Assembly: GCF_008065095.1 (NCBI RefSeq)
Contig: NZ_CP042911.1
Coordinates: 6,240,001 to 6,272,000 of the forward strand
Direction: 5' to 3'
Length of the DNA stretch: 32,000 nt
From: Gemmata obscuriglobus
GTDB lineage: Bacteria > Planctomycetota > Planctomycetia > Gemmatales > Gemmataceae
A program made the position numbers and the translations under genes. Below are positions 15,575-23,905 of this stretch, piece by piece; positions within the stretch are counted from its first letter, which is position 1; each line of letters opens with the position of its first letter. The notes under the pieces were generated by a model. That model searched no databases. It saw only the letters and a list, made by a program, of their open reading frames with translations, and was not told the origin of the DNA.

Positions 15575-15827
15575 CAGTGAACTCCCGGCAATTTTTCTTA
15601 GACACCTTTTTCTCCGCCGGGTCCACAACATTTATGCTGTCGCATGAATTGTCGCTAACTTTGTATCCTTTTCCTAACCCTTTACAGCACAAGTAGTTTA
15701 CCAAATCCAGCAAAAGCTACGCAATCGACATAATTGCTACAACTGAAACACTGGCTTCAGCGCGCACAACCCTTTCGACCTGATCTTGTCGCACTGCCGG
15801 AAAAAATTACATACTCTTGGAAACCGG

Positions 15828-15856
15828 CAACCTCGCCGCAAGCGCCACAACCTCGC
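15828..15856 (+). repeat. 9-bp direct repeat CAACCTCGC x2 in 20-bp register just upstream of the FG-GAP protease gene
   Basis: Exact copies at 15828-15836 and 15848-15856, 14 nt before ATG 15870. They lie in an unusually AT-rich divergent intergenic region (15575-15869) that also carries TGTCGC three times. Confidence 0.5.
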
Positions 15857-15869
15857 TACGGGATCCCTA

Positions 15870-17861
15870 ATGCGGACCTTGGACCCTCGTGCGCAGCGCA
15901 CGGGCATGATGCCCCGTGGCCCGGTTCTTCGACTCGAGACCCTGGAGCAGCGTGACGTACCCGCCATCACGATTCAGATCGATTACACCTACGACACCGG
16001 GTTCTTTGCGAACCGGCCCGACGCCCGCGCCGCGGTCGAGCGGGCGGCGAACGAACTCGGCAGCGCGTTAACCGCGACCCTCGGGGCGATCACCCCGACG
16101 CTCGGGAACACGTGGACCGCCACGATGTTCAACCCGAGCGGGTCGGGTGAGCTGTCGCTTCCGAACCTGTCAGTCGGCGCCAACACGCTCAAGGTGTTCG
16201 TCGGCGCCAAGGCGATGAGCAACAACGAGCAGGGGGTCGGCGGACCGGGCGGGTACTCGGTGTCCGGCAGCAGCGCGTGGATCAGCACGGTGCAGAGCCG
16301 GAACCACGCCGGGTTCGCCCCGTGGGGCGGCAGTTTGTCGTTCGACAGCGGCGCGGACTGGTCCTTCACGTCCAGCGCCAACGGGATCGGAACGAACAAG
16401 ATCGACTTCTATTCCGTGGCGCTGCACGAACTGGGGCACCTGCTCGGGATCGGCACCGCCCCGCAGTGGAACAGTCTGGTGCGCAACGGCACCTTCACCG
16501 GTACGGCCGCGCAGTCGCTGTACGGCGGTCCGGTGCCGCTGACCGGCGACGCCACGCACTGGGCCGACGGCGTTACGATCGGCGGCCAGGCCGTGGCGCT
16601 GGACCCGATCATGCCCCGCGGGACCCGCGTCTCTTGGAGCACCCTGGACACCGCGGCGCTCCGCGACCTCGGCTGGTTCACCGTCGACTCCGGCCCCACG
16701 ACGCCGATCACCACAGTGCCGCTCGGTAACCAGAAATCGGTCGCCTTCACCGGCGGCACGAACGGCACCGTCTCACTCTTCACGGCGTCCAACGGCGTAC
16801 TGGTCGACACCGGCACGCGGCTCACCCCATTTGCGGGGTACGCCGGTGCGGTGCGGGTCGCGAGCGGGGACTTTAACGGCGACGGGGTCACCGACTACGC
16901 GTTCACAACAGGCGCCGGGCCGCAAGCCGTTGTTCAGATCGTGAACGGTCGCGACGGCTCGCTCCTCGTGGGGCAACGGGTCGTGTTCCCGGGGTTCCGG
17001 GGCGGGCTGTTCCTGGCGGCGGCGGACATCGACCGCGACGGGGCCGATGACCTCGTGATCTCTGCGGACGCCGGGGCTGGCCCGCACATCCAGACGTTCC
17101 GGGTGGTGGGCGGTGATCTGGTCGTGCAGTCCAGCTTTTTCGCGTTCGACAATCCGGCATACCGGGGCGGCGCTCGAGTGGCCGCGGGCGACATCAACAA
17201 CGACGGGTACGCGGACGTGGTGGTGACGACCGGCGGGTTGGCCGAAGGGCGTGTCGCGGTTTACAGCGGCGCGAGCCTGCGGAACGGAGCGGCGGCCCGA
17301 CTGGTGCCGGACTTCATCCCGTTCAAAGGGCTGTGGGCCGGGCTGAACGTCGCCGTGGGCGACATGAACGGTGACGGGTACGCAGAACTGGCAATCAGCC
17401 CGGACCGCGGCGCTCCCGCGCACGTGCTGATCTGGTCCGGGTACACTCTTGCCCGGAACTCGGGCACCCAGGCCAGTGCCTTACCGGTAATCGCGAGCTT
17501 CTACGGCCTGCCCTCCAGCGACCATTCTGGCGGTCGGCTCGCGCTCCGCGACACGAACGGGGACGGCCGGTCGGAACTGTTCGTGGCGAGCGGGAATCCG
17601 CAGAACTCCATTGCCGCGACTTACACCTACGAAATGGCGATTGCGGGCGGTCAAGGGGCGACGCCCGCGACACCCTTCAACACACTGGTGACCTACGACG
17701 GTGTGTACGCCGGACTCCATACCACTGACGACGCGACGGAAACGGTCACGGTGGCACCGGTGGAACGCAAGAAATGTACGTGCCACGCGTGTACCGCACT
17801 GGCGCAACTGATCGCAACCGCGACTGGCGCCGAGGCACTCGTTGAAACGATTCCCGTGTGA
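15870..17861 (+). CDS. Secreted-type protein: metzincin-like zinc peptidase domain (HELGHLLG) + FG-GAP/VCBS repeats (663 aa)
   Basis: ATG 15870; ATG-ATG at 15906 is an alternative. ALHELGHLLGIG, and five DxDxDG loops (GDFNGDGVTDY, ADIDRDGADDL, GDINNDGYADV, GDMNGDGYAEL, RDTNGDGRSEL). N-terminal LRLETLEQRDVPA. C-terminal KKCTCHAC. Confidence 0.85.
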   Translation: MRTLDPRAQRTGMMPRGPVLRLETLEQRDVPAITIQIDYTYDTGFFANRPDARAAVERAANELGSALTATLGAITPTLGNTWTATMFNPSGSGELSLPNLSVGANTLKVFVGAKAMSNNEQGVGGPGGYSVSGSSAWISTVQSRNHAGFAPWGGSLSFDSGADWSFTSSANGIGTNKIDFYSVALHELGHLLGIGTAPQWNSLVRNGTFTGTAAQSLYGGPVPLTGDATHWADGVTIGGQAVALDPIMPRGTRVSWSTLDTAALRDLGWFTVDSGPTTPITTVPLGNQKSVAFTGGTNGTVSLFTASNGVLVDTGTRLTPFAGYAGAVRVASGDFNGDGVTDYAFTTGAGPQAVVQIVNGRDGSLLVGQRVVFPGFRGGLFLAAADIDRDGADDLVISADAGAGPHIQTFRVVGGDLVVQSSFFAFDNPAYRGGARVAAGDINNDGYADVVVTTGGLAEGRVAVYSGASLRNGAAARLVPDFIPFKGLWAGLNVAVGDMNGDGYAELAISPDRGAPAHVLIWSGYTLARNSGTQASALPVIASFYGLPSSDHSGGRLALRDTNGDGRSELFVASGNPQNSIAATYTYEMAIAGGQGATPATPFNTLVTYDGVYAGLHTTDDATETVTVAPVERKKCTCHACTALAQLIATATGAEALVETIPV

Positions 17862-17887
17862 GGTTAGGTGAACTTGAAGTGTAGCGT

Positions 17888-17921
17888 CGCGGGTCGCTTC
17901 AGCCGGCTGAAGCGGCCCGCG
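17888..17921 (+). terminator. 34-nt palindrome (17-bp arms, one G-U) downstream of the FG-GAP gene
   Basis: cgcgggtcgcttcagcc/ggctgaagcggcccgcg, 27 nt after the stop. No U tract. Confidence 0.4.
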
Positions 17922-18131
17922 GCGATGCCGATAGTGATCCGTTGGTTGACCCGGCCGGCCGCAACAAGCAGGTTCCGGTCGTTTCCAGTTCGCGCGGCTT
18001 TGGCGATCAGGTGAGGGACGCATACACGCGACCAAATGGAAACGGCTGGATTCTGATGCCCCACATTCGCCTCAATCGGAAGCGAACGCGGGCCGCGCGT
18101 GCTTTAATCACACTCGCGTATCCGATTGTCT

Positions 18132-18374
18132 TCACGAGGCCGGGGCCATTTCGAGCCCGCGAAGCTGACCCGGTTCGATTCGCAACTGAACCTCCGCTGC
18201 GCCCCAACTTTCCCACCATTTCAGGATCAGTGGGCGATCCCGGTGCTCCGGGTGGGTGTCAAGGAAGTCGGCCGCAAGGCGTTCGGGCTCGGTTTCCGAA
18301 CAGTACCAGTGGTCGGCACGAGACAGCGGCCACCAGAGCGGACCTTCGGTTTCGGGCTGGCAAGTCCAGGGCAT
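18132..18374 (-). CDS. Small Trp-rich hypothetical protein (80 aa)
   Basis: ATG 18374 is preceded by GGAGAG (4-nt spacer). MPWTCQPETEGPLWWPLSRADHWYCSE...LILKWWESWGAAEV. Decent GC3 in an otherwise lower-GC gap. No homology recognised. Confidence 0.45.
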   Translation of the reverse strand: MPWTCQPETEGPLWWPLSRADHWYCSETEPERLAADFLDTHPEHRDRPLILKWWESWGAAEVQLRIEPGQLRGLEMAPAS

Positions 18375-18776
18375 AAACTCTCCACAAGGGGGGGCGGTTC
18401 GGCCCGGAAAGGAGAGTGGCATCCGGGCGAAGACGCGCGTGGCAAGTAGTGTGATGGTAAACGCTAGTGGTATCGTGTCAATTGCCAGAAAGTAGTTTTA
18501 CGTCTAACCCTGACTCTTCGTGTAAACCTTTCTTTACACACGCCTGCCGAGGTGACAAACGTCCATCTTGCCAGTGGCTTCCGCCGGCATGTGGCCACTG
18601 AGCGGTGCAGATCGGCATCAAAGCGACCGTGGTATCGCGGCATGCCGCAACAGCCGGGGCTGTACGAATTCTCATACTTTTTTCCGGAGTATGAGGTGTC
18701 CGATCTCAGTACGCTCTCATTCACCACATTGCCCACCTCTCCGGGGCAACCGACGAGCTATTCCCGAGTCACACGT

Positions 18777-20573
18777 ATGCTCGCGCTTCGCTTTGCGGCG
18801 CTCGGCTTGGCCGCACTCCTTGCTGCACCGATCCTTGCCGCCGACCCGGACCTGACCGGCTATCGGACGCTCGAAAAAGCGGTCGTAGCCCCGCCGGGTC
18901 GGTTCAAGGCCGCGGAGGCCGGAGCCGATCCCGCTTTCCTCGGCCTGTCGCTCGCGGCCGACGCGAAGGGGCGGTTGACCGTTGAGTACACGGCCGACAA
19001 CTCGCCCGCCGCCCGCGCCGGCGTGAAGTCCGGGGACGTGCTGTCGGGGGCCGATAGTGCGACCTTCGCCAGCCAGGACGCGTTCCGCGCGTGGCTCGCC
19101 GGCAAGGCGCCCGGTGACCGCGCCCGGCTCGCGCTGCTGCGCGACGGGAAGGCGGTCGAGGCCACCGCGACGCTCGTCCCGGTCAGCCGCCCGACCTCGA
19201 ACGCCAAAGCCTCCCTCGGCATTCAGGTGTCGGCCGCGAAGGGGGGCGGGGTGACGATCGAGCAGGTCGCCGCCGGATCGCCGGCCGCCCGTGCCAAACT
19301 GAAAACGGGTGAGGTGGTGCTGGCGGTCGATCAGACGGAACTGACCGCCCCGGAGAAGTTGCGCGAGGCGCTCGCCGCCAAACGTCCGGGCGATCCCGTC
19401 GTCCTCACGCTGCTCCTGGCCGATAAGCGCGTCGAACTGCAAGTGACGCTCGGCGCGGAAGCGCCCGAGGAGCGGCGCGGCGGCGGGTGGGACGCGCGGC
19501 CCGGCGGGTACTGGACGAAAGAAAAGTACACGGTTGCGATCATCGGGGTCGAGTACCCGGACGTGAAGCACAACGCGGTCATCACGCCCAAGGCCTGGGA
19601 AGAGTCGATGTTCGGCACCAAGTACACCAAATCGGTGACCGGCCAGACCGCCTACGGCAGCATGAAGGAGTACTACGACGAGCAGTCGTACGGCAAGCTG
19701 TCGGTGGTGGGTAAGGCGTTCGACTACGTCGAGGTTAGCAAGAAGCGGGCCGATTACGACAGCGGCCCGCGGATGGCCCTGCTGACCGAGGCGATGGACA
19801 AACTGCTCGCCCGCGAGGGCAAAGACGCGCTCAAGGACTTCGACGGCGTGTTCTTCATCTACGCCGGGGAGCGCTTCCCCGCCGCCCGCGGCAGCCTGTA
19901 CTGGCCGCACCGCGCCAGCATCCGGCACGGCGGCAAGAACTGGCCGTACTTCATCTGCCCCGAGGGCGGCGCGCGGATGGGTAACATCAGCGTGTTCTGC
20001 CACGAGTTCGGGCACATGCTCGGGATGCCGGACCTGTACGCCCGGCCGGAGAACCCCGGGATGGAAGGGGCCGGCATCTGGTGCGCGATGGCCAACCAGG
20101 CCGGCGCCGGGCGCCCGCAGCACTTCAGCGCGTGGTGCAAAGAGCGGCTCGGGTGGATCAAGCCGACGGTGGTCGACCCGTCGGTGAAACAGAAGCTGAT
20201 CCTGGCGCCGATCGAGGACTCGAAGGAGTGTCTCAAAATCCCGGTTCGGGCGGACGGGAGCGAGTACTACCTGCTGGAGAACCGCAAGAAAACCGGGTTC
20301 GATACGAGCCTGCCGGCGGAGGGACTTTTGATCTGGCGCGTGATCGGCGGGCGCCCCGTGCTGCAAGAGTCGCACGGGGTAGCCGGGCCGGCCGGGCCGG
20401 GGTCCTTCCTCTCGTCCGTTCCGTACCCGAGCACAGCAAACGACGCGTTCACCCCGTTCACAACGCCGTCGAGCCGGTCGCAACTGGGCGGCGGGCTACC
20501 GGTGTACGTCACCAACATCCGCCGCCTCGACGACGGCCGCATCACGCTTCAGATCGGGTACGAGTACCAGTGA
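18777..20573 (+). CDS. Secreted PDZ-PDZ-M6 (InhA-like) metalloprotease, catalytic motif intact (598 aa)
   Basis: Signal peptide MLALRFAALGLAALLAAPILAADP. Two PDZ-like modules (SPAARAGVKSGDVL; SPAARAKLKTGEVVL). CHEFGHMLGMPDLY, with HEFGH at 20001-20015. The upstream in-frame 75 codons of the track ORF have poor GC3. Confidence 0.9.
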   Translation: MLALRFAALGLAALLAAPILAADPDLTGYRTLEKAVVAPPGRFKAAEAGADPAFLGLSLAADAKGRLTVEYTADNSPAARAGVKSGDVLSGADSATFASQDAFRAWLAGKAPGDRARLALLRDGKAVEATATLVPVSRPTSNAKASLGIQVSAAKGGGVTIEQVAAGSPAARAKLKTGEVVLAVDQTELTAPEKLREALAAKRPGDPVVLTLLLADKRVELQVTLGAEAPEERRGGGWDARPGGYWTKEKYTVAIIGVEYPDVKHNAVITPKAWEESMFGTKYTKSVTGQTAYGSMKEYYDEQSYGKLSVVGKAFDYVEVSKKRADYDSGPRMALLTEAMDKLLAREGKDALKDFDGVFFIYAGERFPAARGSLYWPHRASIRHGGKNWPYFICPEGGARMGNISVFCHEFGHMLGMPDLYARPENPGMEGAGIWCAMANQAGAGRPQHFSAWCKERLGWIKPTVVDPSVKQKLILAPIEDSKECLKIPVRADGSEYYLLENRKKTGFDTSLPAEGLLIWRVIGGRPVLQESHGVAGPAGPGSFLSSVPYPSTANDAFTPFTTPSSRSQLGGGLPVYVTNIRRLDDGRITLQIGYEYQ

Positions 20574-20620
20574 CCCTAACCGCCACCCACCCGGAACCGC
20601 ACCACCGACGGAGCCCCATT

Positions 20621-22414
20621 GTGACCCGGATCTGCTTCGCGCTCCTCGCCTTCGGTCTGATGACCTCTACCGCCCGTCCGCAGCCCAAGCCTGCCGACGA
20701 CGTGACGGGCTACCGGACGCTGGCGGAAGCGACAACCGCAAAAGTTGTCGCCCCGAAGGGCGGCCCCGGGCGCGTCCCGTACCTCGGCGCGGCGGTGGCC
20801 GCAGCGGCCGACGGTCGCGCGGTCGTCGAGGACGTACAACCGGGCTCGCCTGCCGCGAAAGCCGGGCTGAAGACCGGCGATGTCGTGGTCCGGGTCGGCG
20901 AGAACGCGGTCAAGACGCCACAGGCGTTCCGCGAGTGGCTCCAGAGCTACCGCGCCGGCGATGTCGTTACGCTTGGCGTGTCACGTGACGGCAAGACGAC
21001 GGACCTGACGGCAACGCTCGCGGCCGTCAGCCGGCCGATGACGCGCGGCGGCGGCGCGGCCCCGATCGGGGTAACGCTCGTCGAGGACAAATCTGGCAAG
21101 GGCATCTTTGTGGAAACGGTCCAGAAGGACTCGCCGGCCGCGAGCAGCGGGCTCAAGGCCGGCGACCTCGTTCTGTCACTCGACGGGGCGGAGATGTCGC
21201 GGCCGTCGCGCCTGGGTGAGCTGATCGCCGAGCGCCGGGCCGGGGACGTGATCACGTTCGCCGTGACGCGCGACGGCAAGCCGGCTGAAGTGAAAGTGAC
21301 CCTCGCCGCCGAACGGTCCCGCTCGGGTGCGGGCGTGACCGCCGTTTGGACCGGGCCGTCTCTGCGGTTAGCGGTTGTCTGCGTCGAGTTCGCAGACACC
21401 GCGCACAACGCGAAGATCACGCCCCGCGAACTCGACCGGGCGTTCTTCAGTCAGGACGGCCACACCGGGAAAGATGTGACCGGGAAGGACGTCCACGGGA
21501 GCTTGGGGGATTACTTCCGCGAGCAGTCGGCCGGCGCGTTCCGCCTTGAGGGCAAGGTGTTCGATTGGGTCGCCGTCGCGAAGAAACGGGGCGACTACAT
21601 TCAGGGGTCCGGGACGAGCAACAAAACGGCCCTGCTGGCGGACGCGCTCGCGCTCCTGACCACCCGCGACGGTGACCGCGCCCTCGACGGGTTCGATGCC
21701 GTCGCGTTCGTCTACGCCGGCAGCCGCTACCGCACGAACCGCGGTGCGGTGTACTACCCGCACTCCGGGACGGTGTCGTTCAAGGGGAAGGCCCACCGCT
21801 ACCTGATCGGCGAAGAAGGCGGCACGGCGCTGGCCCCGATCGGTACGTTCGTGAAGCCGCTGTGCGAACTGCTCGGCGTGCCCGACCTGGCCGCCCGGAC
21901 CGAGAACATCGGGTCTGAGGGACTGGGGCCGTGGTGCGCGATGTCGAACACCTTTGAAACGGCCCGACCGCAGCACCTGTCGGCGTGGTGCAAGGAGCGG
22001 CTCGGGTGGCTCAAACCGGTGGTCGTGGACCCGACGGTCAAGCAAAAGCTTGTGCTCTCACCGCGGGAGTGCCTGAAGGTGCTGGTGCGCCCGGACGGGA
22101 GCGAGTACCTTTTGCTGGAATGCCGCACGAAGAAGGGGTTCGACACAGACCTGCCGGCCGAGGGGCTGCTGATCTGGCGGGTGGTTGACGGCCGACCGCT
22201 GCTCGAGGAAGCGCACGGAGTGGAAGGGCCGAGCGGGCCGACGTCCAGCTTGTCGGCGGTGCCGTACCCCAGCCCGGCCAACACCGCATTCACCCCGCTG
22301 ACGACTCCGTCCAGCCGGTCGCCGCAGGGCGGCGGGCTACCGGTCCACATAACGAACATTCGACGCCTGACCGACGGTCGCGTCGCGTTCCAGATCGGGT
22401 ACGAGTTCCGCTAA
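20621..22414 (+). CDS. Paralogue of the preceding gene: PDZ-PDZ-M6-like protein lacking HExxH (predicted pseudo-protease, 597 aa)
   Basis: GTG 20621 with GGAG 7 nt upstream. Signal peptide VTRICFALLAFGLMTSTA. PDZ motifs SPAAKAGLKTGDVVV and SPAASSGLKAGDLVL. The aligned active-site position reads FVKPLCELLGVPDLA (21854-21868). The C-terminal third is near-identical to the upstream gene. Confidence 0.9.
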   Translation: MTRICFALLAFGLMTSTARPQPKPADDVTGYRTLAEATTAKVVAPKGGPGRVPYLGAAVAAAADGRAVVEDVQPGSPAAKAGLKTGDVVVRVGENAVKTPQAFREWLQSYRAGDVVTLGVSRDGKTTDLTATLAAVSRPMTRGGGAAPIGVTLVEDKSGKGIFVETVQKDSPAASSGLKAGDLVLSLDGAEMSRPSRLGELIAERRAGDVITFAVTRDGKPAEVKVTLAAERSRSGAGVTAVWTGPSLRLAVVCVEFADTAHNAKITPRELDRAFFSQDGHTGKDVTGKDVHGSLGDYFREQSAGAFRLEGKVFDWVAVAKKRGDYIQGSGTSNKTALLADALALLTTRDGDRALDGFDAVAFVYAGSRYRTNRGAVYYPHSGTVSFKGKAHRYLIGEEGGTALAPIGTFVKPLCELLGVPDLAARTENIGSEGLGPWCAMSNTFETARPQHLSAWCKERLGWLKPVVVDPTVKQKLVLSPRECLKVLVRPDGSEYLLLECRTKKGFDTDLPAEGLLIWRVVDGRPLLEEAHGVEGPSGPTSSLSAVPYPSPANTAFTPLTTPSSRSPQGGGLPVHITNIRRLTDGRVAFQIGYEFR

Positions 22415-22472
22415 CCTTTGGCGGGCGCCTTCAAGCAGGCATTGGCGGCACACCCTCAGTTGCGTCGCCAAA

Positions 22473-22526
22473 GCAGACGAAGTGTTGGGCGCGAAGACGT
22501 TACTTCGCGCCCAACACTTCGTCTGC
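22473..22526. terminator. Perfect 24-bp inverted repeat (6-nt loop) between convergent M6 paralogue and hemC; right arm is the last 8 codons of hemC
   Basis: gcagacgaagtgttgggcgcgaag-acgtta-cttcgcgcccaacacttcgtctgc. The loop contains the hemC stop (22500-22502). Confidence 0.6.
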
Positions 22527-23417
22527 GCCTTCGGCTAAAAGAATTCCCGCCAGTTCCTGACCAACCGAGAGCGGGGCGCGCATTAACCCCTCGTGCGTTC
22601 CGACGATGCGCCGGCGACCGTCGGGAGAAAGCACCGCACCTCGAACCGTCAGCACCCCGTCGAGTACCTTCGATGTGGCGCCAATGGGCACCAAGCACCC
22701 GCCGCCCAACGCGTACAGCATCGCACGTTCCGCTTGCACCCGCGCGAACGTCGATTCGCACCGCACCTGCGCGAGAACCAGCTTCGTCTCGCCGTCGTCG
22801 CTGCGGCACTCCAGGCCGATGGCCCCCTGTCCCACCGCGGGCAGCATCCAGCTCGGGTCTAGAATTTCGGTGATGCGGTCGGCGAGCCCCAGCCGCGCCA
22901 GCCCGGCCTCCGCTAGCACGATGGCGTCCAGGCCGAGGTCGTCGAGCTTCCTCAGCCGGGTGTCCACGTTCCCGCGCAGGTCCAGCAACTTCAGATCGGG
23001 GCGCCGGTTCAGTACCTGGGCGCGGCGGCGCAAGCTGCTGGTGCCGACCGTCGCCCCCGGGTGCAAATCGTCGAACCGCTTGTGCTTCCGCGAGACGAAC
23101 GCGTCCCCGGTCGGCCCGCGGGGCGGCACCGCGGCCAGTTCCAGTCGTGGCTCGGGGATGGTCGGGAGGTCTTTGAGGCTGTGAACGGCCACGTCCGCGC
23201 GGCCGTCGAGCAGCGCGTTCTGAATAGCCTTGGTGAACACGCCGAACCCGCCCATCGCGGACAGCGCGGACGCCTGGTCGCGGTCCCCGTGTGTCTCGAT
23301 CAGCACCAGCTCAACGGGGCGCGGAGCGACAACCGGCCGCAGCAGTTCCGCAATGTAATTCGCCTGCCACAGCGCGAGCGGGCTGCCGCGGGTGCCGAGC
23401 TTCAGCGGGGCAACCAT
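22500..23417 (-). CDS. hemC: Hydroxymethylbilane synthase (porphobilinogen deaminase, 305 aa)
   Basis: ATG 23417 with AAGGAA SD. LKLGTRGSPLALWQA, RGNVDTRLRKL, LPAVGQGAIG, GGCLVPIG blocks. Its start overlaps the HIT gene stop (TAATG). Confidence 0.9.
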   Translation of the reverse strand: MVAPLKLGTRGSPLALWQANYIAELLRPVVAPRPVELVLIETHGDRDQASALSAMGGFGVFTKAIQNALLDGRADVAVHSLKDLPTIPEPRLELAAVPPRGPTGDAFVSRKHKRFDDLHPGATVGTSSLRRRAQVLNRRPDLKLLDLRGNVDTRLRKLDDLGLDAIVLAEAGLARLGLADRITEILDPSWMLPAVGQGAIGLECRSDDGETKLVLAQVRCESTFARVQAERAMLYALGGGCLVPIGATSKVLDGVLTVRGAVLSPDGRRRIVGTHEGLMRAPLSVGQELAGILLAEGADEVLGAK

Positions 23418-23905
23418 TACGATTCCTTTCGCCGGGGCGCGTTGTTCGCGGTGAGCCACGCGCGGAGCCGCTCGCGCACTTCATCGGGTGGCGCGGTGCC
23501 CGTTTCGAGGCGGCGCTTCTCCGCAGCGTCGGTCTTCGCGCGCTCGAGCGCCAGCCACACGGGCTGAAGGCGCTCGGGATCGTCGGCCGACCGCGGGAAA
23601 ATGTGCCAGTGGAGGTGCGGCACCACGTTCCCGAGCAACTCGTAATTGAGCTTGTGTGGCGCGAAGCACGATTCAATCGCCTCTGCGAGAATCGCCATTT
23701 CGCCCAGAAACGCAGCCCGGTCCGTTCCGAGGTGGCTCAACTCGGATGCGTGTGCGCGAGACGCGAGCAGGCAGTAGCCGGTGTAGAACTGCCACGGACC
23801 GACGAACGCGACCGAATGCGGGAAGTGCCACACCAGCGCCGAGCGGTCGTGCGCGCTGAGATCCGCGACCGTCGCGCACATCGGGCAAGCGGATTCTGTT
23901 CCCAT
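23417..23905 (-). CDS. HIT family protein (162 aa)
   Basis: Histidine triad VPHLHWHIFPR and an N-terminal CPMC zinc-type motif. Confidence 0.85.
   Translation of the reverse strand: MGTESACPMCATVADLSAHDRSALVWHFPHSVAFVGPWQFYTGYCLLASRAHASELSHLGTDRAAFLGEMAILAEAIESCFAPHKLNYELLGNVVPHLHWHIFPRSADDPERLQPVWLALERAKTDAAEKRRLETGTAPPDEVRERLRAWLTANNAPRRKES

Follow-up and report, generated by a model that had tools for sequence, protein, structure and literature searches.

The chromosome of the planctomycete Gemmata obscuriglobus carries, in a stretch of 32,000 nucleotides (nt) of contig NZ_CP042911.1 (positions 6,240,001 to 6,272,000 of the forward strand; this whole stretch is called the window below, and coordinates are those of the window), two neighboring genes for predicted secreted proteins in which a tandem of PDZ domains is followed by a metalloprotease domain of the M6 (InhA) type. 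The upstream gene, copy 1 (18777..20573, + strand, WP_010037435.1), codes for a predicted active secreted PDZ-PDZ-M6 metalloprotease. The downstream gene, copy 2 (20621..22414, + strand, WP_010037431.1), codes for a secreted PDZ-PDZ-M6-like pseudo-peptidase whose zinc site has been erased. We are highly confident that copy 2 is catalytically dead and yet kept by selection. The conserved pair of an active enzyme and a pseudo-enzyme of the PDZ-M6 family is well supported as a feature; it is new, although the theme of paired pseudo-peptidases is already known.

The zinc site of copy 1, HEFGHMLGMPDLY (amino acids 409-421, 20001..20039, + strand), begins with HEFGH at residues 409-413 (HEFGHMLGMPD in full) and presents, in order, a His, the catalytic Glu, a second His, a Gly, the Asp ligand and a Tyr. 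The aligned columns of copy 2, KPLCELLGVPDLA (amino acids 412-424, 21854..21892, + strand), read KPLCE at residues 412-416 (KPLCELLGVPD in full), so that the first His is changed to Lys, the Glu to Pro, the second His to Glu and the Tyr to Ala, with the Gly and the Asp kept. M6 is placed in clan MA(M) (table in PMC3890501). Zinc is coordinated by both His and the Asp of its motif, HEXXHXXGXXD, whose Glu serves as the general base (PMC3890501). Among related metzincins that use an Asp ligand, the Tyr located at +2 adjoins the metal and is thought to stabilize the reaction intermediate (PMC12237041); because the spacing is identical in M6, the Tyr may be presumed to play the same role here. By profile and zinc motif copy 1 is a member of M6 and a predicted active endopeptidase. 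For copy 2, profile and fold indicate homology to M6, but the defining zinc motif fails, so that the protein is not a peptidase member. It had been proposed in the original prediction, made from the letters of the window, that the zinc site of copy 2 is replaced and that the protein has no other HExxH; the aligned columns agree with this, and a motif search of the whole protein returned no HExxH, HxxEH or H-x(2-4)-H.

The alignment of 84 active-type and 131 dead-type homologues defines what has been lost more precisely. The pattern HExxHxxGxxDxY is invariant in the active-type proteins (84/84 in each of its columns). In the dead-type proteins the column of the first His (H 84/84 in actives) contains Lys in 121 sequences and Arg in 10, and the column of the Tyr (Y 84/84 in actives) contains Ala in 123 (94%); the signature of the dead clade is a basic residue where actives have the first His, together with Ala where they have the Tyr. 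The column of the second His (H 84/84 in actives) is occupied by Gln in 45, Arg in 24, Glu in 23 and Leu in 22 dead-type sequences, with others, Met and Lys among them, in the remainder. The catalytic Glu (E 84/84 in actives) is still Glu in 90 dead-type sequences (69%) and Pro in 37 (28%), and the Asp ligand (D 84/84 in actives) is kept in 107 (82%). The original prediction was right about the loss of the catalytic Glu in copy 2 itself, where it is Pro; most members of the clade keep the Glu, and the Asp and the Met-turn are largely kept as well. Nor is the KPLCE string, which it had put forward as a substitution to be followed in related genomes, conserved: this exact string is present in 7/122 aligned sequences, all of them closest relatives, and what is conserved instead is Lys or Arg for the first His (131/131) and Ala for the Tyr (123/131). 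The presumed Met-turn, W-C-A-M in both window copies, was placed by alignment and position only; its Met is found in 100% of actives and is replaced by Leu in 35% of the dead clade (Met in 63%). There are only five further clade-wide switches outside the catalytic center (W376Y, S405G, P427x, Q441P and Y300F), and the loss, as judged from the alignment, is confined to the catalytic center. The always-basic residue facing the retained Asp suggests that it may replace the metal structurally and fill the empty site.

In spite of its degenerate zinc site, copy 2 evolves under purifying selection. The ratio of nonsynonymous to synonymous substitution rates (dN/dS, or omega; Nei-Gojobori method) between the window and Gemmata algarum (locus L001, 98% protein identity) lies at 0.064-0.071 for copy 1 and at 0.052-0.068 for copy 2. 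In a second close pair, loci L008 and L036, it is 0.041 for copy 1 and 0.079 for copy 2. These values come from the two close pairs only, as the distant loci are saturated (dS 0.6 to >2). The 47-nt spacer between the genes is identical in G. algarum. Among the matches listed for copy 2, 116/120 are without the zinc motif, with identities from 98% down to ~50%. Conservation of the C-terminal domain is 0.75 both in the dead clade and in the clade of its active partners, and that of the catalytic domain is 0.58 in the dead versus 0.70 in the partner clade; overall, the dead clade evolves ~1.2 times faster than the partner clade. The idea that copy 2 is a recent degenerate duplicate heading for loss could appeal to the loss of the zinc motif, taken on its own. 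It is, however, contradicted by the intact homologues found across the whole range from 98% to ~50% identity, by an omega of 0.05-0.08 for copy 2, and by the existence of a monophyletic clade with conserved replacements of its own, and we regard it as having practically no chance of being correct. A pseudogene or decaying duplicate was rejected on these grounds (low omega, monophyly, widespread intact homologues), and the view in the original prediction that copy 2 evolves under purifying selection is borne out by dN/dS values of 0.05-0.08, equal to those of copy 1, and by the 131 motif-less homologues.

Apart from the active site the two proteins share one architecture, as had been proposed: two PDZ domains and Peptidase_M6 are found in both by Pfam, and signal peptides were recognized in both by visual inspection alone, from the n-region, the hydrophobic core and the sequence at the putative cleavage site (between ILA and AD in copy 1 and between STA and RP in copy 2). 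The Sec-type signal peptide of copy 1, MLALRFAALGLAALLAAPILA followed by AD, comprises amino acids 1-22 (18777..18842, + strand), and that of copy 2, (M)TRICFALLAFGLMTSTA followed by RP, amino acids 1-18 (20621..20674, + strand), where the structural model has a helix at residues 3-12 with low confidence. The PDZ1-PDZ2 region of copy 1 (amino acids ~52-232, 18930..19472, + strand; Pfam PDZ_2, two stretches) carries a derived PDZ2 signature, AKLKTGE and VVLTLLLADKRVE, and matches the PDZ1-PDZ2 tandem of DegP/DegQ with E = 1e-13 in a search of PDB sequences. The same region of copy 2 (amino acids 53-234, 20777..21322, + strand; Pfam PDZ_2, two stretches, 110.8 bits) has the ancestral PDZ2 motifs SGLKAGD and VTRDGK. 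The M6 domain of copy 1 (amino acids 257-521, 19545..20339, + strand, the TIGR03296 envelope) and the M6-like domain of copy 2 (amino acids 252-520, 21374..22180, + strand, TIGR03296 and PF05547) follow. The profile comparison proposed as a check of the active-site column gave, for TIGR03296 (NCBIfam M6 domain, cut-off 110.8 bits), 149.1 bits for copy 1 and 103.5 bits, i.e., below the cut-off, for copy 2, and for Pfam PF05547 (Peptidase_M6, cut-off 22 bits) 53.5 and 26 bits, respectively; by these profiles copy 2 is homologous to M6, as a borderline case.

An AlphaFold2 model of copy 2 has a mean predicted local distance difference test score (pLDDT) of 86.2 and a predicted template modeling score (pTM) of 0.72. 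Its best fold match in PDB is the zymogen of Bacillus anthracis InhA2 (4yu6, E = 6.4e-13), with a template modeling score of 0.45 when normalized by query length and 14% identity in the fold alignment, and its PDZ tandem matches those of DegQ, DegP and RseP. In the model, the InhA-like fold of copy 2 is retained. Both clades have a conserved mature N-terminus, P-D-L-x-G-Y/F-R-T-V (residues 31-40 of copy 2, modeled with high confidence), and a conserved extreme C-terminus, G-Y-E-Y/F-x, whose last residue is mostly Gln in actives and Arg in dead copies. The latency of InhA depends on its N-terminus, and it may be speculated that the conserved N-terminus of the present proteins is a latency plug and the conserved C-terminus a PDZ ligand.

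The gene arrangement expected from the original prediction, two same-strand genes 47 nt apart with products of 598 and 597 amino acids, agrees with the open reading frames (ORFs) and with the public gene calls for G. obscuriglobus. Copy 1 (ATG start at 18777, stop at 20573, 598 amino acids) is 100% identical to G. obscuriglobus protein WP_010037435.1, which is encoded on contig ABGO01000033 of the UQM 2246 draft genome, and copy 2 starts with GTG at 20621 and stops at 22414 (597 amino acids). The proteins are 47% identical to each other over their full length (BLASTP, E = 3e-174), and the conserved blocks quoted in the prediction are present in both in this alignment. The spacer (20574..20620, + strand) contains a Shine-Dalgarno-like GGAG at 20610-20613, 7 nt ahead of the GTG of copy 2. 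A terminator scan returned 0 sites in 17800-22700, and none between copy 1 and copy 2, and a promoter scan of the same interval found a single sigma-70-like site, on the minus strand (18481-18454); such scans are of little use in a planctomycete with 68% GC, the G+C content of the window being ~68%. The spacing, the Shine-Dalgarno-like sites and the lack of a terminator-like hairpin suggest that copy 1 and copy 2 are probably co-transcribed.

The pair is not unique to this strain, in line with the conservation that the original prediction called for, and none of the outcomes that the prediction had named as refuting it was observed. A scan at one genome per species gave 80 loci, the closest of them from G. 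algarum, the G. obscuriglobus genome itself not being among them. A dead-type gene is present at 14/80 loci, and in 14/14 of these a copy with HExxH lies immediately upstream on the same strand. Eight further active-then-dead pairs came from a metagenome scan and one direct look-up; with the window included, the active-then-dead order on the same strand is found at 23/23 loci with readable upstream DNA. Two more dead-type genes lie at contig edges, where they are uninformative, and are outside this count. Many matches of the dead and the active type also fall in contigs of equal size, for instance in Fimbriiglobus ruber (1,625,878 bp) and in contigs of 2,928,691, 180,446 and 67,910 bp. The gaps between the active and the dead gene range from ~9 to 180 nt across loci, and the start codon is usually preceded by GGAG or GAGG. 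The remaining 66/80 loci have a single active gene, with no second homologue in the flanking DNA that was stored (at most 6 kb, and less near contig ends). These solo actives are found in Verrucomicrobiota (Limisphaerales, Pedosphaera), Armatimonadota (Chthonomonadales), Phycisphaerae/Tepidisphaerales, Zavarzinella formosa and other Gemmataceae; the solo gene has a wide distribution, and the pair is a patchy innovation of the Gemmatales type. No other conserved neighbor of the pair was found across 15 loci, the one shared cluster being a generic ABC ATPase. In two sister lineages (L009:5961-9086 and L022:7862-11185) a third gene is located 3' of the pair on the same strand; its product of ~1040-1100 amino acids has Sortilin-Vps10/BNR repeats and one PDZ domain.

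In neighbor-joining trees, dead copies and partner actives form two clades, each of them monophyletic in 49/50 bootstraps, and the internal branching of one mirrors that of the other. The distance matrices of dead copies and their partners are correlated (Mantel r = 0.66, 0/5000 permutations), and mean divergence across lineages is ~37% for partner proteins and ~44% for dead copies. This picture is consistent with a single old duplication after which both copies were inherited vertically together. Shared vertical descent accounts for the mirror-tree correlation, which we therefore do not take as a sign of contact between the two proteins.

The two partners have also diverged in PDZ2, as is apparent from a comparison of solo actives, paired actives and dead partners. 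Paired actives have altered hallmark residues of this domain, G174K/R (the Gly of A-G-L), D179E (the Asp of G-D) and G205D/N, at positions that are kept in 95-98% of solo actives, and have gained a conserved signature of their own (akLK.GE and VtLTLllAEK.Ve). Dead partners and solo actives keep the ancestral PDZ2 pattern. Each partner appears to have altered what the other kept, catalysis in one case and the ancestral PDZ2 in the other, which would be expected of subunits that divide labor, although this evidence is circumstantial.

We propose the following scenario. A single old tandem duplication of a secreted PDZ-PDZ-M6 metalloprotease (InhA-type, HEXXHXXGXXD) would have taken place in the ancestor of a Gemmatales lineage. 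Copy 1 would have stayed an active zinc endopeptidase that does the cutting, with a remodeled PDZ2. Copy 2 lost catalysis as its first His gave way to a Lys or Arg that may fill the metal site by pairing with the Asp, its second His disappeared and its Tyr changed to Ala; strong purifying selection has preserved its export and its entire fold, including the two PDZ domains, the conserved segment at the N-terminus and the C-terminal domain. The data show the motif loss, the purifying selection, the single origin and the constant order and adjacency of the genes; co-transcription, the pairing of Lys with Asp, physical association and the division of labor are deduced. Copy 2 would now serve a hetero-oligomeric, PDZ-guided envelope protease as a subunit or adaptor, binding or tethering substrates through its ancestral-type PDZ2 and its inert cleft. 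We give about an even chance to the claim that copy 2 works with copy 1, most likely in the capacity of such a subunit or adaptor.

Several points weigh against this proposal. The heteromer of copy 1 and copy 2 is a plausible conjecture, and only the spacing, the Shine-Dalgarno-like sites and the absent terminator-like hairpin speak for co-transcription. A mirror-tree correlation and adjacency are also expected for neighbors that act independently and are co-inherited vertically. The neighbor-joining tree places the dead clade deeper than as a sister to the partner clade; this is probably a rate artifact, but it blurs the exact node of the duplication. Finally, many lineages, including other Gemmataceae and Zavarzinella, have only a solo active copy, and the active enzyme therefore needs no dead partner intrinsically. 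Alternatively, copy 2 could be a stand-alone non-catalytic envelope protein, for instance a PDZ-based holdase or chaperone or a binder that uses the inert cleft, which functions independently of copy 1, with adjacency reflecting just the origin by tandem duplication and shared regulation. The conservation of both PDZ domains and the entire scaffold, the link of HtrA-type PDZ tandems to protein quality control (PMC6411480), the occurrence of solo active genes without a partner in most lineages and the fact that no datum demands contact between the copies would all agree with it. Yet the dead gene is never found apart from its active partner in the 23 loci, which come from deeply diverged lineages, the PDZ2 of the partner changed at hallmark sites exactly where that of the dead protein stayed ancestral, which suggests interdependence, and the same pairing has arisen again in an independent dead/active tandem (locus L093, described below); we consider a stand-alone role to be a serious but rather doubtful alternative.

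A role of copy 2 as an antagonist or latency regulator of copy 1, i.e., as a decoy for substrates or PDZ ligands or as a protein that holds copy 1 inactive until a signal is received, appears unlikely to us. Regulation of active relatives by pseudo-peptidases is a known theme (PMC11266112), and an identical domain set, a cleft kept without its chemistry and co-location with the active gene are what such a regulator could be expected to have, but no feature specific to inhibition was found, and two genes at the same dosage within an operon would be expected of subunits rather than of regulators. Hydrolase activity of copy 2 from a non-canonical site is very improbable. That 69% of the clade still has Glu in the catalytic column and 82% the Asp ligand, and that an invariant His (H532, in the ESHG block) is common to dead copies and actives, could be taken to point in this direction; however, copy 2 of the window has Pro for the catalytic Glu, the position of the second His is held by the chemically unrelated Q/R/E/L/M/K, the Tyr is lost, the Met of the Met-turn is relaxed, and the protein contains neither HExxH nor HxxEH elsewhere. 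Motif searches and column variability led us to reject a cryptic second zinc site.

Inactivation in this family has occurred at least once more, after a separate duplication, at locus L093 (L093:1002-4881). The tandem pair found there is in reversed order, the first copy being dead and the second active (HEFGH), and its members are 58% identical to each other. The dead copy, RTFGQLLGLPELS, has RTFGQ...ELS and a Gly-rich insertion after the Met-turn, and 50/50 bootstraps separate it from the Gemmatales dead clade; judging by its residues, it looks like a convergent inactivation by the same kinds of substitution. Such recurrence is a further circumstantial hint that the partners depend on each other. 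At L149:3015-7461 there is a tandem of two HExxH copies, 46% identical and both with long Gly-rich linkers, in the first of which, HEMGHMLGLPELT, the Tyr is changed to Thr and the Asp to Glu; this locus may represent an intermediate state. An odd motif, ACELGKLLGLPDLS, is found at a contig edge at L154:2-1510, outside the main dead clade. Two shorter forms with one PDZ domain, the dead P0253 (NLLGR..DLA, 528 amino acids) and the active P0254 (HEFGH, 533 amino acids), may be yet another pair, and L154 and P0253/P0254 may be further independent cases.

A broader and more tentative conjecture is possible in our opinion, but with the balance against it. PDZ-PDZ-M6 proteins could be a hitherto uncharacterized class of oligomeric, PDZ-gated envelope metalloproteases, a metallo-DegP/HtrA of sorts, that became obligate hetero-oligomers in Gemmatales, where the dead subunit, with Lys or Arg in the zinc site, would capture the substrate through its ancestral PDZ2 and cleft and the PDZ2 of the active subunit would have taken a new role, with independent recurrence at L093 and possibly in L154 and P0253/P0254. 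If this is true, the PDZ-PDZ-M6 family is a natural replicate experiment on pseudo-enzymes arising from homo-oligomers.

The closest characterized enzymes are the M6 peptidases InhA1 and InhA2 of Bacillus and PrtV of Vibrio (MEROPS M6, clan MA(M)), with which copy 1 shares the M6 profiles, HEXXHXXGXXD, the Tyr at +2 and the C-A-M of the Met-turn. InhA2 is the best match of the copy 2 model (4yu6), yet the identity is only 14%, and copy 2 differs from InhA by missing two of the three zinc ligands. Neither InhA nor PrtV has the N-terminal PDZ-PDZ tandem of copy 1 and copy 2, and the VEG and MAM domains of InhA are absent from both copies. To our knowledge, no characterized M6 enzyme works with a dead paralogue. 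Inactivated M6-like proteins as such are already recognized in NCBIfam family NF052323 (T9SS-dependent M6-like inactivated metalloprotease, where T9SS is the type IX secretion system), but the proteins of this Bacteroidota family are from another phylum, have ~1043 amino acids, depend on T9SS, lack a PDZ tandem and have no stated active partner. Assignment of copy 1 and copy 2 to this family was rejected, as copy 1, with 29.7 bits, is far below the cut-off of 600 bits; the family is not among the best 25 of 29 family matches for copy 2.

The nearest functional analogy is provided by M16B heterodimers, such as the alpha and beta subunits of the mitochondrial processing peptidase and bacterial two-gene M16B pairs, in which substrates cannot be bound without a homologous subunit that lacks the zinc motif (PMC11266112). 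Here, too, a predicted active protein and a zinc-motif-less homologue are encoded by adjacent and co-oriented genes. M16B enzymes differ in having an unrelated clan and fold (an inverzincin HxxEH clamshell) and no PDZ domains, and the heteromer that has been demonstrated there is conjectural here. FtsHi pseudo-proteases of chloroplasts (M41) are described in PMC8197885 and PMC11266112 as dead zinc-site paralogues that are kept under selection and assemble with active relatives; unlike the present pair, they are AAA+ membrane hexamers of eukaryotic organelles, are not encoded by tandem genes and have an unrelated fold. In both copies the PDZ1-PDZ2 tandem resembles most closely that of the HtrA-type proteases DegP and DegQ, which are likewise exported to the envelope. 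However, the copies are without the trypsin-like serine protease domain and have the PDZ domains first, in a reversed order, followed by the C-terminal M6 module; against TIGR02037 (cut-off 416.2 bits) they score 73.6 and 110.3 bits, through PDZ residues only. A 2024 review of pseudo-metallopeptidases (PMC11266112) does not mention InhA/immune inhibitor A (M6), a PDZ-M6 family is missing from a survey of PDZ proteins in microbes, and no description of an active/dead PDZ-PDZ-M6 pair was found in the literature searched (M6 with PDZ and Planctomycetes, accessions, locus tags and inactive M6-like T9SS proteins).

Pseudo-enzymes that partner active relatives are well documented in eukaryotes and sparse in bacteria, and an old, strongly selected and always-adjacent pair is a tractable bacterial model for the fixation of a dead subunit. 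The analysis also flags an uncharacterized family of envelope proteases that is widespread in Planctomycetota, Verrucomicrobiota and Armatimonadota, and corrects public annotation. In some G. obscuriglobus annotations both proteins (AWM36795.1/AWM36796.1 and QEG30541.1/QEG30542.1) are labeled 'Periplasmic serine endoprotease DegP precursor', and the other public name for both genes is 'PDZ domain-containing protein'. The 'DegP precursor' label is wrong, as neither copy has a trypsin Pfam match, and stems from the PDZ tandem. One public model of copy 1 has 643 amino acids and a start further upstream; the frame is open upstream to a GTG at 18552, and gene callers and the signal peptide favor the ATG at 18777.

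The surroundings of the pair in the window contain no Rfam matches, the entire window having been scanned. The region 5' of copy 1 (17862-18776) is intergenic, ~915 nt long, with a lower G+C content (~0.61) and likewise no match in Rfam. It is preceded by an ORF (15786-17861, + strand; 663 amino acids in the public call) with a matrixin-like zinc motif, HELGHLLGIG, followed by FG-GAP repeats; with its weak Peptidase_M10 match, this ORF is another probable secreted metalloprotease adjoining the pair, and it is not kept beside the pair in other genomes. Downstream, two convergent genes occupy 22500-23905 on the minus strand, hemC (porphobilinogen deaminase, 22500-23459) and a HIT-family gene (23417-23905); these are unrelated housekeeping genes, and copy 1 and copy 2 therefore make up an isolated two-gene unit.

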